From positions 1-11,377 of the forward strand of contig CAXTTL010000157.1 of assembly GCA_964247135.1 (NCBI GenBank): 11,377 nt of DNA. Reading direction: 5' to 3'. Below, in pieces: positions 3 to 7,149 of the stretch. The DNA is from an uncultured Deinococcales bacterium (lineage in GTDB: Bacteria > Deinococcota > Deinococci > Deinococcales > JAAFIG01). How positions within the stretch are numbered: position 1 is the stretch's first letter; each line of letters begins with the position of its first letter. The notes beneath the pieces were generated by a model that saw only the letters and a list, made by a program, of their open reading frames with translations, was not told where the DNA came from and did not search any database. Made by a program: the position numbers and the translations under genes.

Positions 3-326
3 CGCGCCGATGGTCTGATTGACCTGCTAATTCCCAACCGTTTTGGCGACGGCGATTCGCGCTCATGGGCAGGGGAGACGCGACGTTTCCCCGAGCCTGA
101 TTCGGGTTGGTGGTTTGTCGCACCCGAACCCATTGGTAAACATCAACTGATCGCCCTGTTCGCGCCTGAAGGCATCAAACTCGACGGGCTGGCAAGGTTC
201 GAGCCTGGAAATCCGTTTGCTGTGGTGCGCGTTCACGGTTTGGCGAACCTCGAGAACGCCTTCAAAACCCGCATTCCAAACTGTGCAACTCGAGTCAATT
301 TTGTGTATTCGGTGGTGAAAAAATAA
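3..326 (+). CDS. DUF4384 domain-containing protein, 3' part (5'-truncated by window edge)
   Basis: Frame 3 is open from the window start: RADGLIDLLIPNRFG...AGETRRFPEPDSGWWFVAPEPIGKHQLIALF...VVKK*. This fits the DUF4384 pattern G-x-I-x-LL-x-PN...AGE-x-R-x-FP...P-x-G. Its TAA overlaps the allB ATG (TAATG). Confidence 0.7.
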   Translation, partial: RADGLIDLLIPNRFGDGDSRSWAGETRRFPEPDSGWWFVAPEPIGKHQLIALFAPEGIKLDGLARFEPGNPFAVVRVHGLANLENAFKTRIPNCATRVNFVYSVVKK

Positions 327-1705
327 TGTTTGAACTGGTGATCGAAAATGGTTTGGTGGTGCAGCCTGACGGCTCGAGCCTTGCCAATATTGGCATTTCA
401 GATGGTGTCATCCGTGCCATCTCGAGCAATTCACTCGAGGGTCAAGAGGTGATTGACGCGACTGGTTTGGTGGTCATGCCTGGGGCGGTGGATTTGCACG
501 TGCATTTCTCCGAGCCTGGTCGCACGCACTGGGAGGGCTGGTGGCATGGCTCGAGGGCGGCAGCGGCAGGTGGTGTAACAACGGTGGTTGAAATGCCTTT
601 AAACGCCATTCCAGCCACCACCAGCGTATCGGCATTACAACTCAAACTCGAGGCGGCAAAAGACCAAGCGTTTGTCGATTATGCGCTGTGGGGCGGCTTG
701 GTGGACGATAACCTTTCAGATTTGCCAGCACTCGCAAAGTCTGGTGTCATTGGTTTCAAAGCCTTCATGGTGGACATCCAAGACAAAACCTTTACATTCA
801 ACGAACGCGAAATTTTAGAACAGGGAATGCTCGAGATTGGCTCACACGGGCATTTTCTGGCGGTTCATGCCGAAGACAGCCGCATGGTTTGGGAAAATAC
901 TCGAGCCTTGCAAAATCAGGGTCGCATTGACCGCGCCGCCTGGAACGAAGCCCGCTCGCCAGAAGCCGAACTCGAGGCGATCCGCAGCGCATTGCGCCTT
1001 GCCAAAGCCGCCAATTGCCCATTGCACGTGGTTCACACCAGCATCCCCGAAGGCATTGACGAGATCACCAAAGCTCGGGCTTTGGGGCAAGCCGTGACCG
1101 TCGAAACCTGTGCGCATTACCTGGTGTTCACCGACGCCGACCTCGAGCGACTTGGACCGATTGCCAAATGTGCGCCGCCATTGCGCGACGCCGCGCGTCA
1201 AGATGGACTTTGGGAGCGTGTTTTGGATGGCAGCATCGATTGCATTACCAGTGACCATTCGCCCTGCCCAACCGAAGACAAAACCCGAGGAGATAACAAC
1301 ATTTGGTTGGCTTGGGGCGGCATTACGGGCATTCAAAGCCTCGTCGTTGCCGTGCTCAGCGAAGGTCAAAAGCGTGGGCTGAGCCTCGAGCAAGCCGCAA
1401 AATTACTTTCCACCAATCCCGCCAAAATCGCTGGACTCTATCCGCAAAAAGGCGCAATCCAACTGGGCGCAGACGCTGACCTGATGATTGTCAACCTCGA
1501 GAAACCTTGGACGCTCGAGAAAGAAATGTTGTATTCAAAACACCAGCATTCGCCTTACGTTAGATTCGAGATGCAAGCCTTCGTCGAACTGGTGTTGCTG
1601 CGTGGGCAAGTTGTGGCTCGAGGTGGCAGCATTGAAGGTGCGCCACATGGAACTTGGTTGCCCCGTTCAAACGTCAACGCTCGAGCATCCAAAATATTGA
1701 TCTGA
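326..1705 (+). CDS. allB: Allantoinase (cyclic amidohydrolase family)
   Basis: 459 aa with motifs DLHVHFSEPGRTHWEG, GGVTT, MPLN, GFKAF, VHAE, HVVH, ETCAHYL, KCAPPLR, SDHSP and WGGI, typical of metal-dependent allantoinase. Confidence 0.9.
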   Translation: MFELVIENGLVVQPDGSSLANIGISDGVIRAISSNSLEGQEVIDATGLVVMPGAVDLHVHFSEPGRTHWEGWWHGSRAAAAGGVTTVVEMPLNAIPATTSVSALQLKLEAAKDQAFVDYALWGGLVDDNLSDLPALAKSGVIGFKAFMVDIQDKTFTFNEREILEQGMLEIGSHGHFLAVHAEDSRMVWENTRALQNQGRIDRAAWNEARSPEAELEAIRSALRLAKAANCPLHVVHTSIPEGIDEITKARALGQAVTVETCAHYLVFTDADLERLGPIAKCAPPLRDAARQDGLWERVLDGSIDCITSDHSPCPTEDKTRGDNNIWLAWGGITGIQSLVVAVLSEGQKRGLSLEQAAKLLSTNPAKIAGLYPQKGAIQLGADADLMIVNLEKPWTLEKEMLYSKHQHSPYVRFEMQAFVELVLLRGQVVARGGSIEGAPHGTWLPRSNVNARASKILI

Positions 1706-1711
1706 CAAAGC

Positions 1712-1739
1712 AAAAAAAATCCCGCCTCGTGGCGGTGAT
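1712..1739 (-). terminator. Intrinsic terminator ending the tRNA array transcript
   Basis: Minus strand reads ATCACCGCC-ACGA-GGCGGGAT then a T8 run. It lies downstream of the last tRNA and converges on the allB stop. Confidence 0.8.
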
Positions 1740-1826
1740 GGTCAAAGGACACACCCGTATTCGGTATTCGTCAAGATTATGCGTTCGAGTGCCAAAAAGG
1801 GAGAGCAGAACAACTGTTTTTCAAAA

Positions 1827-1916
1827 TGGCGGAATCGGCAGGATTTGAACCTGCGAAACATTGAAGTTCTCCTCGTTAGCAGTGAGGTGCAATAAACCAG
1901 ACTATGCGACGATTCC
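1827..1916 (-). tRNA. tRNA-Ser(GCT)
   Basis: Acceptor GGAATCG/CGATTCC, G73, CCA; anticodon arm CCTCA-CTGCTAA-CGAGG; long variable arm; T-loop TTCAAAT. Confidence 0.9.
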
Positions 1917-1951
1917 ACGATGCTCGAGATATACCCCTCGAGCTTGGGTTT

Positions 1952-2029
1952 TGGCGAGCCTGGAGGGATTTGAACCCCCAGCAATACGTTTTGGAGACGT
2001 ACTCCCTTAGCCAGTCGGGATTCAGACTC
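1952..2029 (-). tRNA. tRNA-Trp(CCA)
   Basis: Acceptor GAGTCTG/CAGGCTC, G73, CCA; TACGT-CTCCAAA-ACGTA; A at position 8. Confidence 0.88.
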
Positions 2030-2056
2030 GTAAAGCTCGAGGTTTGCTCGAGCGTG

Positions 2057-2143
2057 TGGCGGAAAATGAGGGAATCGAACCCCCGAGCCTTTGACAGCCA
2101 GCCGTTTTCAAGACGATTTCCTCGACCTAACCGGACACTTCCC
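2057..2143 (-). tRNA. tRNA-Ser(TGA)
   Basis: Acceptor GGGAAGT/ATTTTCC, G73, CCA; anticodon loop CTTGAAA; long variable arm; T-loop TTCGATT. Confidence 0.85.
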
Positions 2144-2148
2144 TTAAA

Positions 2149-2218
2149 AGACCTCGCTCGGAATTGAACCGAGAACCGATGGGTTGCAGCCATCGTTCAT
2201 GCCGTCTGAAACAAGGTC
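2149..2218 (-). tRNA. tRNA-Cys(GCA), CCA not encoded
   Basis: Acceptor GACCTTG/CGAGGTC, U73 (Cys identity element); GATGG-CTGCAAC-CCATC; T-arm CTCGG-TTCAATT-CCGAG. Confidence 0.85.
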
Positions 2219-2275
2219 AAGTGGAGTTTGTGTAATTTGATCCACAAACCCTTTTTGCTTTTACAAAATCAGTTT

Positions 2276-3031
2276 TTAGTCAAGTATTGGGAACTCTAGA
2301 GTAGGGAGTTGTTTTACATTTCGCTTAAGTAGCTCAATAAAACGCTGAGTAACCTCCCAGGCTTGTTTTGCAAATTTATCTTGATGAATACCTAAAATAT
2401 CTTCGTGACCACCATGACGCTGTTCTAGTGCAAGTTCACACATTTCTTTAGTCCAATCCTTAGAGGTGTTCAGCGCCTCATTCATTTTTTCCCAAGATTT
2501 AGGCTTGTCTAAGTTATATTGGTTTTTAAAGTAGTGCCTGATAGCTTCAACTGCTTGAAAAGTAAAGAAAGCTAAATTGTCAGGATATTTTTGTGATAAA
2601 CGCAAACTATCAAGTGCTCGACGCAACTCTGGCGTCTTAAAAGATATTTCAAAAACATCATCAAAAACAAACTTTTTAGTGAATATTTTGAGCTTTTCAT
2701 TTCCCTCAAAAGAAATTTCTTGACTTTGACCATTCCAATGAATTGTTTCAAGCTGAAAATCATAAAATATAGATTCGAGAAAGCACCAAATGTCAAGGAT
2801 TGCACGAATATTATAGCGTGCAAAATTCAAAATTTCGTTTGTTTTTTCAAAATTACCTTCTGCAATTGTAAAAATAACTTTGACATTTTGCCCTGAAAAT
2901 ACTACTTCGACATCACCTGTAAAGCCTATAAATTCTCGAGCCTCATCTCCACATTTTAGTTTTGTGGTCTTGACCAATAAGATTGGTTTGTGATCTGGAT
3001 AGATTCGACCACGTATTTCAAGTTGATTCAT
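2276..3031 (-). CDS. AT-rich hypothetical protein inside the tRNA array; C-terminal helical domain possibly HEPN-like
   Basis: 251-aa ORF with SD AGAGAGG 5 nt upstream of ATG. Much more AT-rich than the flanks. The C-terminus has FFTFQAVEAIRHYF...W...QRHGGH. The family assignment is inference. Confidence 0.8.
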   Translation of the reverse strand: MNQLEIRGRIYPDHKPILLVKTTKLKCGDEAREFIGFTGDVEVVFSGQNVKVIFTIAEGNFEKTNEILNFARYNIRAILDIWCFLESIFYDFQLETIHWNGQSQEISFEGNEKLKIFTKKFVFDDVFEISFKTPELRRALDSLRLSQKYPDNLAFFTFQAVEAIRHYFKNQYNLDKPKSWEKMNEALNTSKDWTKEMCELALEQRHGGHEDILGIHQDKFAKQAWEVTQRFIELLKRNVKQLPTLEFPILD

Positions 3032-3101
3032 TAAAACCTCTCTTTCATATTTTCTGATACTTCGTAATCATATTTGGACAGAATTACACGTGCTTGAGGT
3101 T

Positions 3102-3178
3102 TGGTGCTTTCCGAGGGACTCGAACCCTCACAAAACCGTGTTTGAAACGATTACCTCTACCAATTGGGTTAGGAAAGC
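3102..3178 (-). tRNA. tRNA-Leu(CAA), short variable loop
   Basis: GCTTTCC/GGAAAGC, A73, CCA; ATCGT-TTCAAAC-ACGGT; variable region only TTTGT. Confidence 0.88.
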
Positions 3179-3203
3179 AAGACCTCGAGAAACCCCGAGG
3201 TTG

Positions 3204-3280
3204 TGGTGCGCCGAGCGGGAGTCGAACCCGCAAACCCCTGGTTCTAAGCCAGGTGAGACTGCCAATTCCTCTATCAGCGC
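3204..3280 (-). tRNA. tRNA-Leu(TAG), short variable loop
   Basis: GCGCTGA/TCGGCGC, A73, CCA; CCTGG-CTTAGAA-CCAGG. Confidence 0.9.
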
Positions 3281-3281
3281 A

Positions 3282-3357
3282 TGGTACTCGAGACGGGACT
3301 CGAACCCGTAAGCTCTGGCTTCTCGAGCCAGTGAGTGTACCGTTTCTCTACCCGAGC
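3282..3357 (-). tRNA. tRNA-Leu(GAG), short variable loop, C33
   Basis: GCTCGGG/CTCGAGT, A73, CCA; CTGGC-TCGAGAA-GCCAG, with C in place of the invariant U33. Confidence 0.8.
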
Positions 3358-3360
3358 ATA

Positions 3361-3435
3361 AGGTTTGGGTGGGAATCGAACTCACGTTTTCTTGTTTACA
3401 AGATAAGCGCTCTAGCCATCTCGAGCTTCCAAACC
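3361..3435 (-). tRNA. tRNA-Thr(TGT), CCA not encoded
   Basis: GGTTTGG/CCAAACC; CTTAT-CTTGTAA-ACAAG; T-loop TTCGATT; A8. Confidence 0.82.
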
Positions 3436-3438
3436 ATT

Positions 3439-3514
3439 TGGTGCAATCGGAAGGAATCGAACCTTCGTCTCCTGCATGGCAAGCAGGTGTCGTAAACCAC
3501 TGGACAACGAATGC
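3439..3514 (-). tRNA. tRNA-Gly(GCC)
   Basis: GCATTCG/CGATTGC (one T-T mismatch), A73, CCA; CCTGC-TTGCCAT-GCAGG. Confidence 0.87.
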
Positions 3515-3539
3515 AATCAATCTCGAGTTTTGAGATTTT

Positions 3540-3614
3540 TGGTGCGGTAGGAGGGACTTGCACCCTCGTTCTCTGCTTGGAAGGCAGGCATCCTGGCTGC
3601 TGAATGACTTCCGC
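3540..3614 (-). tRNA. tRNA-Gly(TCC), non-canonical elbow (A18/G55)
   Basis: GCGGAAG/CTACCGC, CCA; CCTGC-CTTCCAA-GCAGA; T-loop TGCAAGT; D-loop AGCAGCCA lacks GG. Confidence 0.8.
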
Positions 3615-3618
3615 ATTG

Positions 3619-3693
3619 TGGAGCGCACGGTAGGATTTTCACCCACATTTCCTGCTGGAAGGCAGGCGTCCTAAATGTTGGACGACGAAACGC
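3619..3693 (-). tRNA. Atypical tRNA-Gly(TCC)-like RNA (6-nt anticodon loop); possibly pseudo or non-proteinogenic
   Basis: Ends GCGC-T-CCA; D-stem GTCC/GGAC; CCTGC-CTTCCA-GCAGG; T-loop TGAAAAT; acceptor stem has an internal mismatch/bulge. Confidence 0.6.
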
Positions 3694-3777
3694 ACGTCGG
3701 GAGCAGAACCAAGGGTTTACCTCAAGCCTGATCCCGTTTTGAAACCTTTTGTGCTCTAAGGTTTCAAGGGGTGGTAC

Positions 3778-3853
3778 TGGTGGGTTTCCTCGGACTCGAA
3801 CCGAGACTTCGCAGCTTAAAAGGCTGCTGCTCTACCTATTGAGCTAAAAACCC
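3778..3853 (-). tRNA. tRNA-Lys(TTT)
   Basis: GGGTTTT/GAAACCC, A73, CCA; GCAGC-CTTTTAA-GCTGC; canonical D and T arms. Confidence 0.93.
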
Positions 3854-3862
3854 GTGTTGGAT

Positions 3863-3938
3863 TGGTGATCTCGAGGGGAATTGAACCCCTATTCTCAGAT
3901 TGAAAGCCTGGAGTCCTAAACCATTGGACGACGAGACC
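3863..3938 (-). tRNA. tRNA-Glu(TTC)
   Basis: GGTCTCG/CGAGATC, CCA; CCAGG-CTTTCAA-TCTGA; D-stem GTCC/GGAC. Confidence 0.88.
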
Positions 3939-3941
3939 ACT

Positions 3942-4017
3942 TGGCAGGGGAAGACGGACTCGAACCGCCATTGAACAGCTTCAAAGACTGTTGACTTGCC
4001 AATTAGTCCATTCCCCT
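3942..4017 (-). tRNA. tRNA-Gln(TTG)
   Basis: AGGGGAA/TTCCCCT, G73, CCA; ACAGT-CTTTGAA-GCTGT. Confidence 0.9.
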
Positions 4018-4021
4018 ATGC

Positions 4022-4118
4022 CTCGAGCAAGTTTGTGCATCACAGTAAATGCTTCTTGCAGGGTTTGAACCCGCTCTCCTTTTGGGATTGACCGATAACT
4101 GTGATGCTTCGGCTCGAG
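4022..4118 (-). ncRNA. Y RNA-like ncRNA (copy 3) with an internal tRNA T-arm
   Basis: Bulged-C helix CTCGAGC(C)GA / TT-GCTCGAG; 10-bp upper stem GCATCACAGT/ACTGTGATGC; GTTATC motif; internal T-arm GCGGG-TTCAAAC-CCTGC. Confidence 0.7.
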
Positions 4119-4129
4119 AATTGTATTTC

Positions 4130-4206
4130 TGGTCGAGAGACTTGGAATCGAACCAAGACCTTCTGTGCTTCAAACAGACGCGCAACACCTTGTACGCTAT
4201 CTCTCG
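4130..4206 (-). tRNA. tRNA-Phe(GAA)
   Basis: CGAGAGA/TCTCTCG, A73, CCA; TCTGT-TTGAAGC-ACAGA; C1:G72 and G37. Confidence 0.87.
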
Positions 4207-4209
4207 AGG

Positions 4210-4283
4210 TGGATGCGGAACCGAGAGTCGAACTCGGCATGTCGAGCTTATGAGGCTCGATGTGTCACCAGACACGTTCCGCA
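4210..4283 (-). tRNA. tRNA with CAT anticodon (Met; initiator-like acceptor stem)
   Basis: TGCGGAA/TTCCGCA, CCA; CGAGC-CTCATAA-GCTCG; short D-arm; lacks the three consecutive G:C pairs of a true fMet anticodon stem. Confidence 0.8.
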
Positions 4284-4326
4284 ATGTGTACCCTCGAGGC
4301 TTTGGAGGCTTTTTTCTCGAGGGTTG

Positions 4327-4401
4327 TGGTAGGCACGGAGGGATTTGAACCCCCAACGTTCTCTATGTAAAAGAGGCACTCTTCCATTGAGTTACGCGCC
4401 T
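4327..4401 (-). tRNA. tRNA-Val(TAC)
   Basis: AGGCGCG/CGTGCCT, A73, CCA; anticodon loop TTTACAT. Confidence 0.9.
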
Positions 4402-4404
4402 GTG

Positions 4405-4480
4405 TGGTGGAAATGACAGGAATCGAACCTGCATTGTTCTTCAGTGCAAATGAAGTGCCATCCCGTTAGGCGACATTCCC
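4405..4480 (-). tRNA. tRNA-Ala(TGC)
   Basis: GGGAATG/CATTTCC with the G3:U70 identity pair, A73, CCA; CTTCA-TTTGCAC-TGAAG. Confidence 0.92.
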
Positions 4481-4518
4481 AAAGTGGGCGAATTTGTCCT
4501 GCGCCCGCCTTGGCGCTT

Positions 4519-4595
4519 TGGTAAGGGATGTAAGAATTGAACTTACTTGATGTCCAGTTTCCAAAACTGGCGACTCGCCTTGAGTCCGATCCCTT
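4519..4595 (-). tRNA. tRNA-Pro(TGG), atypical A1:U72 and A37
   Basis: AAGGGAT/ATCCCTT, A73, CCA; CCAGT-TTTGGAA-ACTGG; T-arm GTAAG-TTCAATT-CTTAC. Confidence 0.83.
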
Positions 4596-4793
4596 GATCG
4601 CGCTTCTTGCTCATAAAACAGCACCTTACGGGCTATTCGCGCTTCAGTTACTCGAGTTGAAGCCACTCGGTCACGCGGTATACCTATGTTCTAAAACCCT
4701 TACACAATTCTTGAAATCCTAGTACGCAACAGCCTGGTTTCACCCTCGCAGTTGGGTTTTGGAACACGCTCGAGGTTTGAATTCTCGAGTTAA

Positions 4794-4867
4794 AGCCCTC
4801 GGCAGGATTTAAACCCGCACCGTTCTTGTTAGAAGCAAGACACTCTGTTCATTTGAGCTACGAGGGC
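4794..4867 (-). tRNA. tRNA-Arg(TCT), CCA not encoded, A19:U56 elbow
   Basis: GCCCTCG/CGAGGGC; TCTTG-CTTCTAA-CAAGA; T-loop TTTAAAT; D-loop AATGAACA. Confidence 0.83.
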
Positions 4868-4870
4868 ATT

Positions 4871-4945
4871 TGGAGCACCTGAAGGGACTCGAACCCCCAC
4901 TCTTGACGTTCGAAGCGTCGCGCCTTTCCATTAGGCTACAGGTGC
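4871..4945 (-). tRNA. tRNA-Arg(TCG)
   Basis: GCACCTG/CAGGTGC, CCA; CGACG-CTTCGAA-CGTCA; A20 in the D-loop. Confidence 0.88.
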
Positions 4946-4975
4946 AAAATCTCGAGTGATGCTCGAGGGTCATTT

Positions 4976-5064
4976 GCGAGGACAAGTTGGCGTGCAAGGG
5001 AAGCCCCTCTCGAGGCGTAAAGATTGGATTTATCTCAGATAACCTTGCACAATCGGTCCTGCGC
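4976..5064 (-). ncRNA. Y RNA-like ncRNA (copy 2)
   Basis: Bulged-C helix GCGCAGGAC(C)GA / TT-GTCCTCGC; upper stem GTGCAAGG/CCTTGCAC; GGTTATCT, GCTTC and ACTTG motifs. Confidence 0.72.
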
Positions 5065-5111
5065 GGTACTTGATGGCGAATAAGACAGTTTTACATCGTG
5101 TCTTAGGATAT

Positions 5112-5188
5112 TGGCTGACCTTCCAGGGATCGAACCTGGGACATCTCCGTTAACAGTGGAGCGCTCTGACCGCCTGAGCTAAAGGTCA
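5112..5188 (-). tRNA. tRNA-Asn(GTT)
   Basis: TGACCTT/AAGGTCA (U1:A72), G73, CCA; CTCCA-CTGTTAA-CGGAG. Confidence 0.93.
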
Positions 5189-5231
5189 ATATGCTCGAGC
5201 AGCGACCATGCCCGCCAGGTGCGTTTTATGG

Positions 5232-5296
5232 TCAAGACAAGTGATTAACGAACGGAAGCAATCTTTTGTAGAGATAACCGTTTGTCTTCGGCTCAA
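5232..5296 (-). ncRNA. Minimal Y RNA-like ncRNA (copy 1)
   Basis: TTGAGC(C)GA-AGACAAACG-GTTATCT...GCTTC-CGTTCGTT-AATC-ACTTGTCTTGA. Same motifs and spacing as the other two copies, with a weaker lower stem. Confidence 0.6.
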
Positions 5297-5301
5297 AGCG
5301 G

Positions 5302-5386
5302 TGGTGGGTGCGGAAGGATTTGAACCTCCAATGTCGCAAGGACGCCTGATCTACAGTCAGGTGCAATACCGTTCTGCCACACACCC
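5302..5386 (-). tRNA. tRNA-Tyr(GTA)
   Basis: GGGTGTG/CGCACCC, A73, CCA; CCTGA-CTGTAGA-TCAGG (G37); long variable arm. Confidence 0.92.
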
Positions 5387-5486
5387 AATCTCGAGGTTCA
5401 AGGTCACACTTGAACCTCAGATTTTTATTTTGGCACTCGAGTTGTCAATGTTCTCAGAACCGTTCCCAGTGTTTGAGAGCGCTCTT

Positions 5487-5563
5487 TGGGGTCCACCGTC
5501 GGGAATCGCACCCGAGTTTCCAGGGTCACAACCTGGCGTCCTGTCTGTTGGACGACGACGAAC
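5487..5563 (-). tRNA. tRNA-His(GTG), first gene of the array
   Basis: G-1:C73; acceptor TTCGTCG/CGGTGGA (three G:U pairs); CCAGG-TTGTGAC-CCTGG; T-loop TGCGATT; 3' end reads C73-CCCA. Confidence 0.8.
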
Positions 5564-5574
5564 AAAATGAAATG

Positions 5575-5605
5575 AAAAAGGGCTTCTACCGATTCGGTGA
5601 AGCCC
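5575..5605 (-). terminator. Intrinsic terminator/attenuator immediately upstream of the first tRNA
   Basis: Minus strand reads GGGCTTC-ACCG-AAT-CGGT-A-GAAGCCC followed by TTTTTCATTT. Confidence 0.8.
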
Positions 5606-5629
5606 AAAATGCAAAATGGGTACACCAAG

Positions 5630-5800
5630 TTAACTTGTGAAGACCTCGAGACGGAATTCGTTACGACCTTGCCAACTGCGAACGCTTTGATGCTTCGGGC
5701 TACAACGCAATGCACTCCCGCAATAACCCGACAATAGATTCGCGCCGAAATTCGTGGCGGGATTCTCGAGTCTTAAATTTTGGAGTTGCATAAATGTCAT
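5630..5800 (-). CDS. Putative 56-aa leader peptide of the tRNA array
   Basis: MTFMQLQNLRLENPATNFGANLLSGYCGSALRCSPKHQSVRSWQGRNEFRLEVFTS*. SD-like GAAAGGT just upstream of ATG; stop 24 nt before the terminator hairpin; lies downstream of the predicted promoter. Confidence 0.55.
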   Translation of the reverse strand: MTFMQLQNLRLENPATNFGANLLSGYCGSALRCSPKHQSVRSWQGRNEFRLEVFTS

Positions 5801-5848
5801 GGCGACCTTTCAAACCTCGAGTGTCACTCGGGGTCAATCTCGAGGTTG

Positions 5849-5877
5849 AGTGTACGGTGTACGTAAATTTGTGTCAT
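5849..5877 (-). promoter_or_regulatory. sigma70-type promoter for the leader and tRNA array
   Basis: ATGACA (5877-5872) - 17 nt - TACACT (5854-5849) on the minus strand. Confidence 0.6.
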
Positions 5878-5931
5878 TCGTACAATTGCTTAGACGCCAC
5901 TAAGCCATTTGGTCAGAAGTTACGGTTTGAG

Positions 5932-5940
5932 TGTTACGCT
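5932..5940 (+). promoter_or_regulatory. Extended -10 element for leaderless moeA
   Basis: TGT-TACGCT ending 6 nt before ATG 5947. Confidence 0.55.
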
Positions 5941-5946
5941 CGAGGC

Positions 5947-7149
5947 ATGAAAACAGATGTGACGCTCGAGGAAGCCATATCAATCTTGGCGGGTATTTTG
6001 CCAGCACCACAACGCGAATCGGTTGGTTTGCTCGAGGGATTGCACCGCGTGCTGGCAGAGGATTTGAAAAGTCTGGTGGATCACCCAAGCGTCGATGACA
6101 GTTCCTTGGACGGTTACGCCGTGCGGCTCGAGGACACCCTTCAAGCCACGCCAGACCTTCCAGTGCGGTTCGAGGTGATGGGCGCGGTTGCGGCAGGCTC
6201 TGTGCCGTTTGTCGGGCGGCTCGAGAAAGATCAGGCGGTCAAGGTTTTTACGGGTGCGCCAGTGCCCGATGGCACAACTGGCATTGTCATGGTCGAAAAC
6301 ACGGTTCGAGACGAGGACAGCGTTTTTGTTTACCAGCCAGCCACGCCCGACGTTCGCAAGCGTGGGCAAGACCTCGAGGTTGGGAAATCGTACCTGCAAA
6401 AAGGTCAGATTTTGCGTGGCTCACAAATTGCACTCGCGGCGGCGATGGGTCACTCGAGTTTACCCGTCCTCAAGGTTCCTCGAATTGCCATTCTCAGCAC
6501 GGGCGATGAGATTCTCGAGCCTGGACAACCCTTACCGCCTGGTGGGGCGTACAACGCCAACAGTTACGGACTGGCGGCAATGCTGCGCGAAATGGGCGCT
6601 GAACCCGTGATTTTGCCTCGAGTCAAAGATGACTTGGATTCGATTCGCCAAAGTTTTGAAGCCGCCAAAGATTGCGATTTGCTCCTCACCATCGGTGGGG
6701 TCAGCATGGGTGAACGCGATTTTGTGCGGATGTTGCTCGAGCGTGAGGCGAATATGCACTACTGGAAAATCAAAGTCAAACCCGGTGGTCCACCCGTCTG
6801 CGCGACTTGGCAAAACCTGCCCGTGTTCGGGCTTCCAGGCAATCCAGTCTCGAGTCTGGTGATTTTCTTGCTGGTGGTGAAGCCTGCACTGTACAAACGT
6901 TACGGCGTCTTCGAGCCAGCGTATGAAACCGTAACTGCTACCGCACTAACGCCGTTTAAAAGCGCAGGCGCGAAAACAGGAATGTGGCGTTGCACCCTCG
7001 AGAAATTTGAGAATGGTTTTGGTGCAAGGGCTTTCGGTAATCAAAGCTCTGGAGTCTTGCGCAGCATGGTGCAAGCCAATGCGCTGGCGGTCGTGCCACC
7101 ACAAACGGAAGTCAAAACAGGCGAGAGGCTCGAGGTGATTCGACTCTAA
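5947..7149 (+). CDS. moeA: Molybdopterin molybdotransferase MoeA (gephyrin-like)
   Basis: Motifs HRVLAEDL, P-x-x-D-x-S-x-LDGYA, VFTGAPVPDG, STGDEI, GGVSMGERD, KPGGP, FGLPGNPVS and QSSG. The true start is probably ATG 5947 (MKTDVTLEEA). Confidence 0.95.
   Translation: MKTDVTLEEAISILAGILPAPQRESVGLLEGLHRVLAEDLKSLVDHPSVDDSSLDGYAVRLEDTLQATPDLPVRFEVMGAVAAGSVPFVGRLEKDQAVKVFTGAPVPDGTTGIVMVENTVRDEDSVFVYQPATPDVRKRGQDLEVGKSYLQKGQILRGSQIALAAAMGHSSLPVLKVPRIAILSTGDEILEPGQPLPPGGAYNANSYGLAAMLREMGAEPVILPRVKDDLDSIRQSFEAAKDCDLLLTIGGVSMGERDFVRMLLEREANMHYWKIKVKPGGPPVCATWQNLPVFGLPGNPVSSLVIFLLVVKPALYKRYGVFEPAYETVTATALTPFKSAGAKTGMWRCTLEKFENGFGARAFGNQSSGVLRSMVQANALAVVPPQTEVKTGERLEVIRL

Follow-up and report, generated by a model that had tools for sequence, protein, structure and literature searches.

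Neither the role of bacterial Ro60 proteins and their Y RNAs nor the purpose of long supernumerary arrays of transfer RNA (tRNA) genes is settled. Among such arrays, the L-arrays, exemplified by the trn operon of Anabaena sp. PCC 7120, are portrayed in the relevant sections of the survey by Santamaria-Gomez et al. (2021; PMC8421152) as at least 20 co-oriented, dense and non-periodic tRNA genes, one per isotype and mostly with U or G at anticodon position 34, that supplement a dispersed set, are interrupted by few cargo open reading frames (ORFs) and are patchily distributed and horizontally spread; their expression is described as silent under normal growth conditions and switched on by translational stress, and Deinococcus-Thermus is credited there with short accretive arrays only. 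Bacterial Ro60/Y RNA loci carry several paralogous Y RNA genes in a row on the strand of the Ro60 gene, rsr. Here, we describe a locus in which the two meet. It lies on an 11,377-bp stretch of DNA (hereafter, the window) that constitutes an entire contig (CAXTTL010000157.1) of a metagenome-derived Deinococcales assembly (386 contigs, 5.09 Mb, 52.6% guanine plus cytosine (GC), 84% complete). The tRNA array of the window has Y RNA genes in its spacers, and in sister genera the corresponding arrays run directly into rsr. What is new is this family-wide fusion of an L-type array with a Ro60/Y RNA operon; both kinds of component were already known.

How does the locus compare with its closest counterparts? 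With 23 tRNA genes in 3,737 bp (1827-5563), or 6.2 per kb, it has more than the at least 20 genes and at least two genes per kb by which the pertinent passage of Tran et al. (2016; PMC4758250) delimits a tRNA array unit. It shares the gene-content traits of L-arrays listed above, but is family-wide and apparently vertically inherited, and it differs further in its Y RNA genes, in the rsr junction of sister genera and in tRNA-Leu genes devoid of a long variable arm. While a repressor, TrcR, is reported in part of the literature on the Anabaena operon, the present array is instead headed by a leader ORF and a terminator. Its spacer RNAs are reminiscent of the bacterial Y RNAs of Deinococcus radiodurans (RF01053) and Salmonella (YrlA/YrlB, RF02553), as these are depicted in sections of Chen et al. 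(2014; PMC4201824), with respect to the stem closed by the 5′ and 3′ ends, the GNCGAAN0-1G-type motif and the bulge; likewise, several paralogues stand in a row on the rsr strand and one element bears a T-arm-like hairpin. In the known loci, however, Y RNA genes lie alone beside rsr, whereas here they lie scattered among some two dozen genuine tRNA genes, and no rsr was found in the genome of the window.

The initial annotation had not recognised the combination of tRNA array, Y RNAs and leader-peptide attenuation as described. This holds only in part: a full-text literature search yielded no account of an array with Y RNA genes between its tRNA genes, nor of a bacterial array joined to rsr, but partial precedents exist in archaea and phages. 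According to a passage in Morgado and Vicente (2019; PMC6333295), a TROVE gene was found in 20 of 29 archaeal tRNA clusters, so there, too, a Ro60-type gene accompanies large tRNA clusters; these differ in being associated with mobile-element genes and in containing many tRNA pseudogenes, and the passage does not mention Y RNAs. In the actinophages Wofford and Bxz1, a Ro-like gene is surrounded by numerous tRNA genes and immediately preceded by a Y RNA that matches our covariance model R1 (below). In contrast to the array described here, many small ORFs and an HNH gene lie between the phage tRNA genes, there is no shared fixed order, and the one or two Y RNAs reside next to Ro, with none between the tRNAs. 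Chen et al. (2014; PMC4201824) state, in one passage, that hits overlapping tandem tRNA genes were discarded, and array-embedded Y RNA loci would therefore have been filtered out. More generally, standard pipelines, through Rfam thresholds and filters that drop tandem-tRNA overlaps, miss Y RNAs of the array type.

The link to Ro60 is provided by the sister genera. In five of six tested loci from other genera, the array is followed directly, and in the same orientation, by a gene with TROVE and vWA_Ro60 domains (Pfam, E 1e-61 to 1e-65). Of the 18 genomes of the family, eight contain vWA_Ro60; in all eight (8/8), its gene shares a contig with the 3′ end of the array, and rsr directly follows the array in the same orientation. 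A connection to RNA quality control, suspected early on, thus holds in sister genera. The genes 3′ of rsr vary (DinB, transposase, SDR). In the genome of the window, RtcB is encoded on contig C91, unlinked to the array, and the rsr-yrlBA-rtcBA arrangement of RNA repair operons was not found.

The second line of evidence comes from the spacers. A shared closing stem was found in particular spacers, namely Tyr-Asn, Asn/Asp-Arg, Phe-Gln and the stretch from the last tRNA-Ser to rsr, and R1 was built from an alignment of 27 such elements. In this alignment, 90.6% of cells are paired as compared to 26–52% when partners are slid by 1–3 columns, both partners vary in 12 of the 18 pairs, and the covariation score was reached by none of 500 shuffles, although the structure was derived from the aligned sequences themselves, which favours it somewhat. 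Over the whole 5.09-Mb genome, R1 (with 150 of ~2,800 first-look candidates scored) matches at three sites only, all of them in the window. Elsewhere, it picks up RNAs immediately before the Ro60 gene of a Deinococcus-like genome (46.4 bits) and in the phages Wofford (Streptomyces; 40.6 bits, E 2.7e-7) and Bxz1 (Mycobacterium; 25.3 bits). In a 151-genome sample of the phylum, R1 found clusters of 1–3 elements in 18 of 82 genomes of the Deinococcus-like family f3 and nothing in the 68 genomes of families f2, f4 and f5. In another family of the order (G019, L036 6690-8800), Glu, Gln and Lys tRNA genes are interleaved with three R1 matches directly upstream of rsr, and in a Deinococcus-like genome (G020, L037 7200-8580), tRNA halves flank Y-type stems upstream of rsr. 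The three Y-RNA-like RNAs of the initial annotation are hence borne out: the spacer RNAs are Y RNA homologues, and R1 matches three of them in the window. At E up to 1e-3, loci of rsr-bearing genomes contain 3–7 elements, the genome of the window three, and G008, from another genus without rsr, none.

The three elements (Table 1) are not equally well preserved. Y RNA c nearly fills the Phe-to-Gln spacer and differs from its counterpart in G003 at 3 of 98 positions; where kept, this element is conserved well above the neutral-like level. It is the only one with a T-arm-like hairpin; the tRNA-like domain of the YrlA subtype comprises T and D arms, and a D-arm was not identified here. The GNCGAAN0-1G motif is exact in Y RNAs a and c, and deviant in Y RNA b.

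As to the tRNA genes themselves, ARAGORN called 22, all on the minus strand (1827-5563), 18 of which also score above the Rfam tRNA gathering threshold; Ser(UGA), Cys, Met and Pro fall below it. Pro and Met are therefore unseen by Rfam, yet their position is conserved across the family. Rfam added tRNA-Gly(UCC) at 3543-3614 (47.7 bits), called at 3540-3614 by ARAGORN under relaxed settings. Against the 24 tRNAs claimed initially, there are accordingly 23 tRNA genes and one marginal tRNA-like copy (3628-3687) for which ARAGORN made no call even when relaxed. Other aspects of that description are accurate: the 23 genes cover 18 amino acids, lacking Asp and Ile; 20 of the 23 anticodons begin with U or G; and tRNAs, Y-RNA-like elements, leader ORF and terminators all lie on the minus strand.

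Array DNA was matched in all 18 genomes of the family, while other families of the order gave single tRNA-sized pieces only. In 15 loci from 14 family genomes (all those whose array was fetched), the isotype order called by ARAGORN is identical: His, Tyr, Asn, (Asp), Arg, (Lys), Pro, Ala, Val, (Ile), Met, Phe, followed by Gln, Glu, Lys, (Thr), Gly, Leu (one to four copies), Cys, Ser, Trp, Ser, with Gly genes interleaved among the Leu genes in some loci.

Comparison with the housekeeping tRNA set showed the array to be supernumerary. In a complete relative (G011), 71 tRNA matches divide into 23 arrayed and 48 dispersed, and in the genome of the window (G000), 17 of the 22 array anticodons recur among 44 dispersed tRNAs. 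Array tRNAs are only 56–75% identical to dispersed tRNAs of the same anticodon in this genome, so that the array represents an extra set rather than a recent duplicate. Within the genus, array tRNAs of different species are on average 89–94% identical as compared to 65–70% at third codon positions of moeA, which indicates purifying selection on the tRNAs. The initial description of the array as "self-contained" is not supported: besides the missing Ro60, array-type tRNAs for Asp and Ile are found on another contig. There, a trio of Asp(GUC), Glu(CUC) and Ile(GAU) genes (G000:C14:11510-11740), which includes both isotypes absent from the array, is 77–86% identical to array tRNAs of relatives versus 61–72% for other genomic copies. 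A 74-nucleotide (nt) tRNA-Pro(UGG) beside a 75-nt tRNA-Thr(UGU) on contig C305 (4183-4386) may be another array-type fragment.

The tRNA-Leu genes deserve separate mention. Those of the window, three in number, are 76–77 nt long, and all 41 family array tRNAs with Leu anticodons measure 73–79 nt as compared to 82–87 nt for the dispersed tRNA-Leu genes of this genome; at such a length, the array versions lack the long variable arm. Their cloverleaf was recovered by RNAalifold from the 41 sequences, with compensatory changes at 18 of 20 pairs. The discriminator position, at which A73 is the main identity element for leucyl-tRNA synthetase, is occupied by A in all 41 genes, and CCA is encoded in 37. 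A 78-nt tRNA-Leu(CAG) adjoining rsr in a Deinococcus-like genome is 77–82% identical to several array tRNA-Leu genes, and the annotated tRNA-Leu(UAG) genes of Streptomyces phage Wofford are also 76 nt long. The conservation of short-arm tRNA-Leu genes raises the question of how such tRNAs get charged.

What might control this unit? In trp/his-type attenuators, a short translated ORF is followed by an intrinsic terminator ahead of the structural genes. The window offers the same succession, with a leader ORF and a terminator within ~25 nt of each other, and both are conserved. Across the genus, the two indels in the leader ORF (36 nt and 3 nt) are in frame, and in genera g5, g3 and g2 leader ORFs of 48–72 codons with diverged sequences end 66–108 nt before tRNA-His. 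The terminator (5564-5605) has a fold z-score of -3.88, with none of 200 shuffles folding as well, and a hairpin plus T-run precedes tRNA-His in 8/8 loci from four genera, with arms that differ by genus but still pair. RNAalifold did not recover the terminator from the leader alignment, in which the hairpins of different genera are offset by two columns and therefore do not line up; the evidence for it consists of single-sequence folds. Leader ORF, terminator and final terminator are thus present as initially annotated, and the first two are kept as a pair across four genera. Unlike classical attenuators, the leaders lack a stretch of regulatory codons, an alternative antiterminator helix is not clearly formed, and tRNAs and Y RNAs would be the genes under control. 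The architecture fits leader-peptide attenuation, a reading weakened by the points on gating listed below.

Two ideas about the leader peptide were discarded. One was a leader sampling all amino acids: the last 50 residues contain 17–19 different amino acids in 7/8 loci, against a mean of 16.3 in random 50-residue windows from the long ORFs of the window genome, which is not significant (P 0.06–0.48); the eighth leader (L011) has 13, since the frame-picking rule took another frame. The other was that the leader lacks Asp and Ile just as the array does, which fails in four sister species.

We consider it about 60% probable that the window holds a supernumerary L-array, or tRNA array unit, that in this Deinococcales family became fused with a Ro60/Y RNA locus, is gated by an attenuator, and has lost its Ro60 in the genus of the window. 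The ancestral layout would have comprised a promoter, a leader ORF of ~50–70 codons, an intrinsic terminator, tRNA-His, ~22–29 tRNA genes in fixed order with ~3–7 Y RNA genes among them, and rsr. Transcription would begin upstream of the leader and in most cases stop at the terminator; if leader translation is disturbed, read-through would yield a single long precursor. From this, RNase P and 3′ trimming could free the tRNAs, and the Y RNAs, nearly filling their spacers, may be released as by-products. The output would be a second pool of tRNAs together with Ro60–Y RNA particles assisting in the removal of damaged structured RNA. In the genus of the window, the rsr end would be gone, with the array now next to moeA and its tRNAs still under selection, and Y RNA genes would have been lost species by species, leaving three here, one of them split by a repetitive extragenic palindromic (REP) element. 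The genes, their conservation, the rsr linkage of sister genera, the structure of the Y stems and the selection on the tRNAs are observed; co-transcription, Y RNA release by tRNA processing, attenuation and a role under stress are what we infer. A look for transcript evidence returned 19 sequencing runs, all with small word shares and none of RNA.

Several observations weigh against this interpretation. Ro60 was found in none of the six genomes of the genus (79–92% complete), that of the window (84%) included; TROVE and tblastn searches of the latter were negative and no rsr remnant was seen in the array loci of the genus. The window's genome seems to have lost the gene, and its Y RNAs lack a known partner. 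The other four species of the genus provide a single R1 match (in G003; none in G001, G002 and G005). The window contributed two of the 27 seed elements of R1, and where each seed element stops on its 3′ side was judged by eye. Y RNA a, including its REP element, folds no better than many shuffles (z -1.43). Rfam models of Y RNAs stay below threshold in the window (RF01053, 21.8 bits versus 80; YrlA, 19.5 versus 69), where only tRNAs are found at gathering thresholds. The 21.8-bit match is Y RNA c, aligned end to end, and in G006 RF01053 scores 36.8 bits on the element of the Phe-Gln spacer and 55.4 bits (E 3e-7) on that of the Gln-Gln spacer, both likewise below the cut-off of 80. YrlA matches at permissive E-values overlapped tRNAs and were treated as noise. 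Regarding gating, the leaders from eight loci show no significant codon or amino-acid signature, antiterminator pairing is weakly indicated (a consensus helix of five pairs, -0.98 kcal/mol), and transcription of most of the array could bypass the leader by starting at the stronger promoter-like site that lies between tRNA-His and tRNA-Tyr.

A bolder proposal, which we regard as tentative and on balance doubtful, is that the family operon, uniting a full second set of tRNAs with several Y RNAs and Ro60, acts as an attenuator-gated "replace and clear" module. It would become active when translation falters, supplying fresh divergent tRNAs, the short-arm tRNA-Leu included, while Ro60–Y RNA particles remove damaged ones, with the Y RNAs matured by tRNA-processing enzymes. 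If true, nature has run an experiment in the genus of the window, where the tRNA half persists although Ro60 is gone. The physical union of array and Ro60/Y RNA locus, conserved and preceded by one leader and terminator, points to a purpose in common that can be tested, and the family provides natural variants for this: genomes that have Ro60, genomes that lack it, and from 0 to 7 Y RNA genes.

Could the locus instead be a decaying relic, that is, a once mobile or phage-derived tRNA/Ro60 island now eroding and functionless in the genome of the window? We hold this to be improbable, despite signs of erosion. The genus has lost rsr and most of its species have lost Y RNAs; the array contains a pseudo-tRNA (3628-3687) and a foreign ORF; and the 3′ strand of Y RNA a is split by a REP element (core 5201-5237) whose core has 75 matches, spread over 54 contigs. 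Within the Phe-to-Glu spacer of sister species (L013 of G005, L021 of G002), a REP element interrupts the anticodon loop of the array tRNA-Gln(UUG), and the array tRNA-His carries an insertion in the region of the T-arm in L013, L020 and L022, which in G005 includes a REP element; owing to these insertions, ARAGORN misses the respective tRNA-Gln and tRNA-His genes. A phage source could moreover be suspected from the Ro-like genes among actinophage tRNA genes. A relic, however, would hardly keep its isotype order family-wide, maintain 89–94% identity among tRNAs as compared to 65–70% at neutral-like sites, or preserve cloverleaves through compensatory changes. Neither integrase nor phage genes were found in the window, and the array tRNAs bear no specific resemblance to those of phages: a blastn search of the array against 50,697 phage records returned only short generic tRNA matches in 65 records, and tRNAs of Streptomyces phage Wofford are 51–71% identical to array tRNAs of the same anticodon. 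Also, the family's Rsr resembles the Deinococcus-like copy (56%) more than it does those of phages (37–42%). The description of the module as "domesticated", implying phage origin, is therefore not upheld, given an array inherited across the whole family and the lack of specific DNA similarity to phages.

Slightly less probable as a sole explanation, though compatible with the fused array–Ro60 interpretation and not exclusive of it, is a reserve tRNA set, whose divergent members replace housekeeping tRNAs hit by anticodon nucleases, acetyltransferase toxins or phage. The strong divergence of array tRNAs from housekeeping copies would suit such a function, as would the content of the Leu-to-Cys gap, which in the array of G014 (L016 4302-5192) harbours a match to the defence candidate PD-T4-7 (E 8e-31) and in that of G005 (L013 1839-2324) a GNAT acetyltransferase. 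GNAT acetyltransferases and HEAT-repeat proteins recur inside or beside arrays of several genera. Mycobacterial tRNA arrays have been called a putative anti-defence system in part of a recent report (2026; PMC12803027). The window itself, in contrast, contains no nuclease or toxin.

That this is an ordinary, constitutively expressed housekeeping operon supplying needed tRNAs appears unlikely. In the present assembly, the anticodons CCA, GCC, GCU, UCG and UGA are found in the array only, CCA ends are encoded as in the other tRNAs of the host, and the tRNAs are under purifying selection. However, the assembly is 84% complete and the complete relative has its 48 dispersed tRNAs beside the array, a conserved terminator precedes the tRNA genes, and the survey passages on Deinococcus-Thermus (PMC8421152) list short accretive arrays only. 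Finally, the notion that the spacer elements are mere palindrome-driven hairpins arising from the hyper-abundant CTCGAG hexamer (33,925 genome copies), with which most basal stems start and end, is hardly credible, since R1 matches at only three places in the genome (150 of ~2,800 candidates scored), the invariant internal pairs, the bulge and the variable upper helix with its double changes all lie outside the hexamer, and R1 detects Ro60-adjacent RNAs in GC-rich Deinococcus-like genomes and phages. The hexamer occurs 89 times in the window versus 2.7 expected (6.7 per kb genome-wide); besides forming the base of most Y RNA stems, it is found within the anticodon arm of tRNA-Leu(GAG).

Table 1. 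Positions of array components, neighbouring genes and cargo (window coordinates unless a locus is named).
Feature	Position	Strand	Evidence or remark
Amidohydrolase	326-1705	+	Flanks array
Final intrinsic terminator	1712-1735 (hairpin 1735-1722)	-	Five G-C pairs, then eight T
tRNA-Cys(GCA), Ser(UGA), Trp(CCA), Ser(GCU)	1827-2218	-	ARAGORN
Embedded ORF, 251 residues, DUF8168 family	2276-3031	-	Leu-to-Cys gap, co-oriented
tRNA-Gly(UCC), Gly(GCC), Thr(UGU), Leu(GAG), Leu(UAG), Leu(CAA)	3102-3614	-	ARAGORN, Rfam
Marginal tRNA-like copy, Gly-UCC-like	3628-3687	-	Deviant T-loop; Rfam 28.8 bits versus cut-off 29
tRNA-Gln(UUG), Glu(UUC), Lys(UUU)	3778-4017	-	ARAGORN, Rfam
Y RNA c	4022-4119	-	R1 71.4 bits, seed member; fold z -4.17, 0/200 shuffles as good
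tRNA-Pro(UGG), Ala(UGC), Val(UAC), Met(CAU), Phe(GAA)	4130-4595	-	ARAGORN
198-nt Arg-to-Pro spacer	4596-4793	-	No R1 match; 4596-4650 is a small dispersed repeat
tRNA-Arg(UCG), Arg(UCU)	4794-4945	-	ARAGORN, Rfam
Y RNA b	4977-5063	-	R1 51.9 bits, seed member; fold z -2.38 (moderate)
tRNA-Asn(GUU)	5112-5188	-	ARAGORN, Rfam
Y RNA a	5231-5298	-	R1 32.8 bits, E 3e-5, outside model seed; Ro60-binding-type stem
tRNA-Tyr(GUA)	5302-5386	-	ARAGORN, Rfam
Internal promoter-like site, tRNA-His to tRNA-Tyr	5421-5448	-	Consensus scan 10/12; conserved in 5/5 genomes of genus
tRNA-His(GUG)	5487-5563	-	ARAGORN, Rfam
Intrinsic-terminator-like hairpin and T-run	5605-5580, 5579-5564	-	Abuts first base of tRNA-His
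Leader ORF, 56 codons plus stop	5630-5800	-	Open in 5/5 genomes of genus
Promoter-like site upstream of leader ORF	5849-5877	-	Consensus scan 9/12, weak: 5 sites in region versus 3.4 expected
MoeA	Longest ORF 5794-7149 (451 residues); probable start 5947	+	Flanks array; Pfam match
Alpha-2-macroglobulin	From 7184	+	Beyond moeA
HEAT-repeat/GNAT genes in other loci	L011 5008-5505; L024 5064-5570; L012 7268-7741, 11337-11819

Only in the genus of the window does the array adjoin moeA. An amidohydrolase gene beside moeA was found neither in the loci of other genera, for which 1.5-kb flanks were available, nor in the other loci of the window's own genus. Homologues of MoeA have 400–403 residues and the Pfam match begins at residue 57, so the longest ORF is probably over-extended and the start likely lies at 5947, leaving ~380 bp between moeA and the array. 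Family searches of the window found no integrase, HNH or phage gene, in agreement with the initial annotation. The feature list of the latter, on the other hand, was incomplete, as both the ORF of 251 codons within the array and the REP insertions had been overlooked. This ORF is foreign in composition, with a GC content of ~0.35 versus 0.53 for the genome and a single CTCGAG site. A single homologue (45% identity) carries precomputed PF26504/PF26505 matches, and the Atlas score of the ORF to DUF8168 clusters is 0.96; searches gave no Pfam match at E up to 0.01 (one weak match, E 0.1, was disregarded), no PHROGs match and no PADLOC match. Of the 198-nt Arg-to-Pro spacer, the repeat portion has nine matches on eight contigs, and a similar stretch occurs downstream of rsr in G007 (L015); the remainder folds as a long stem.

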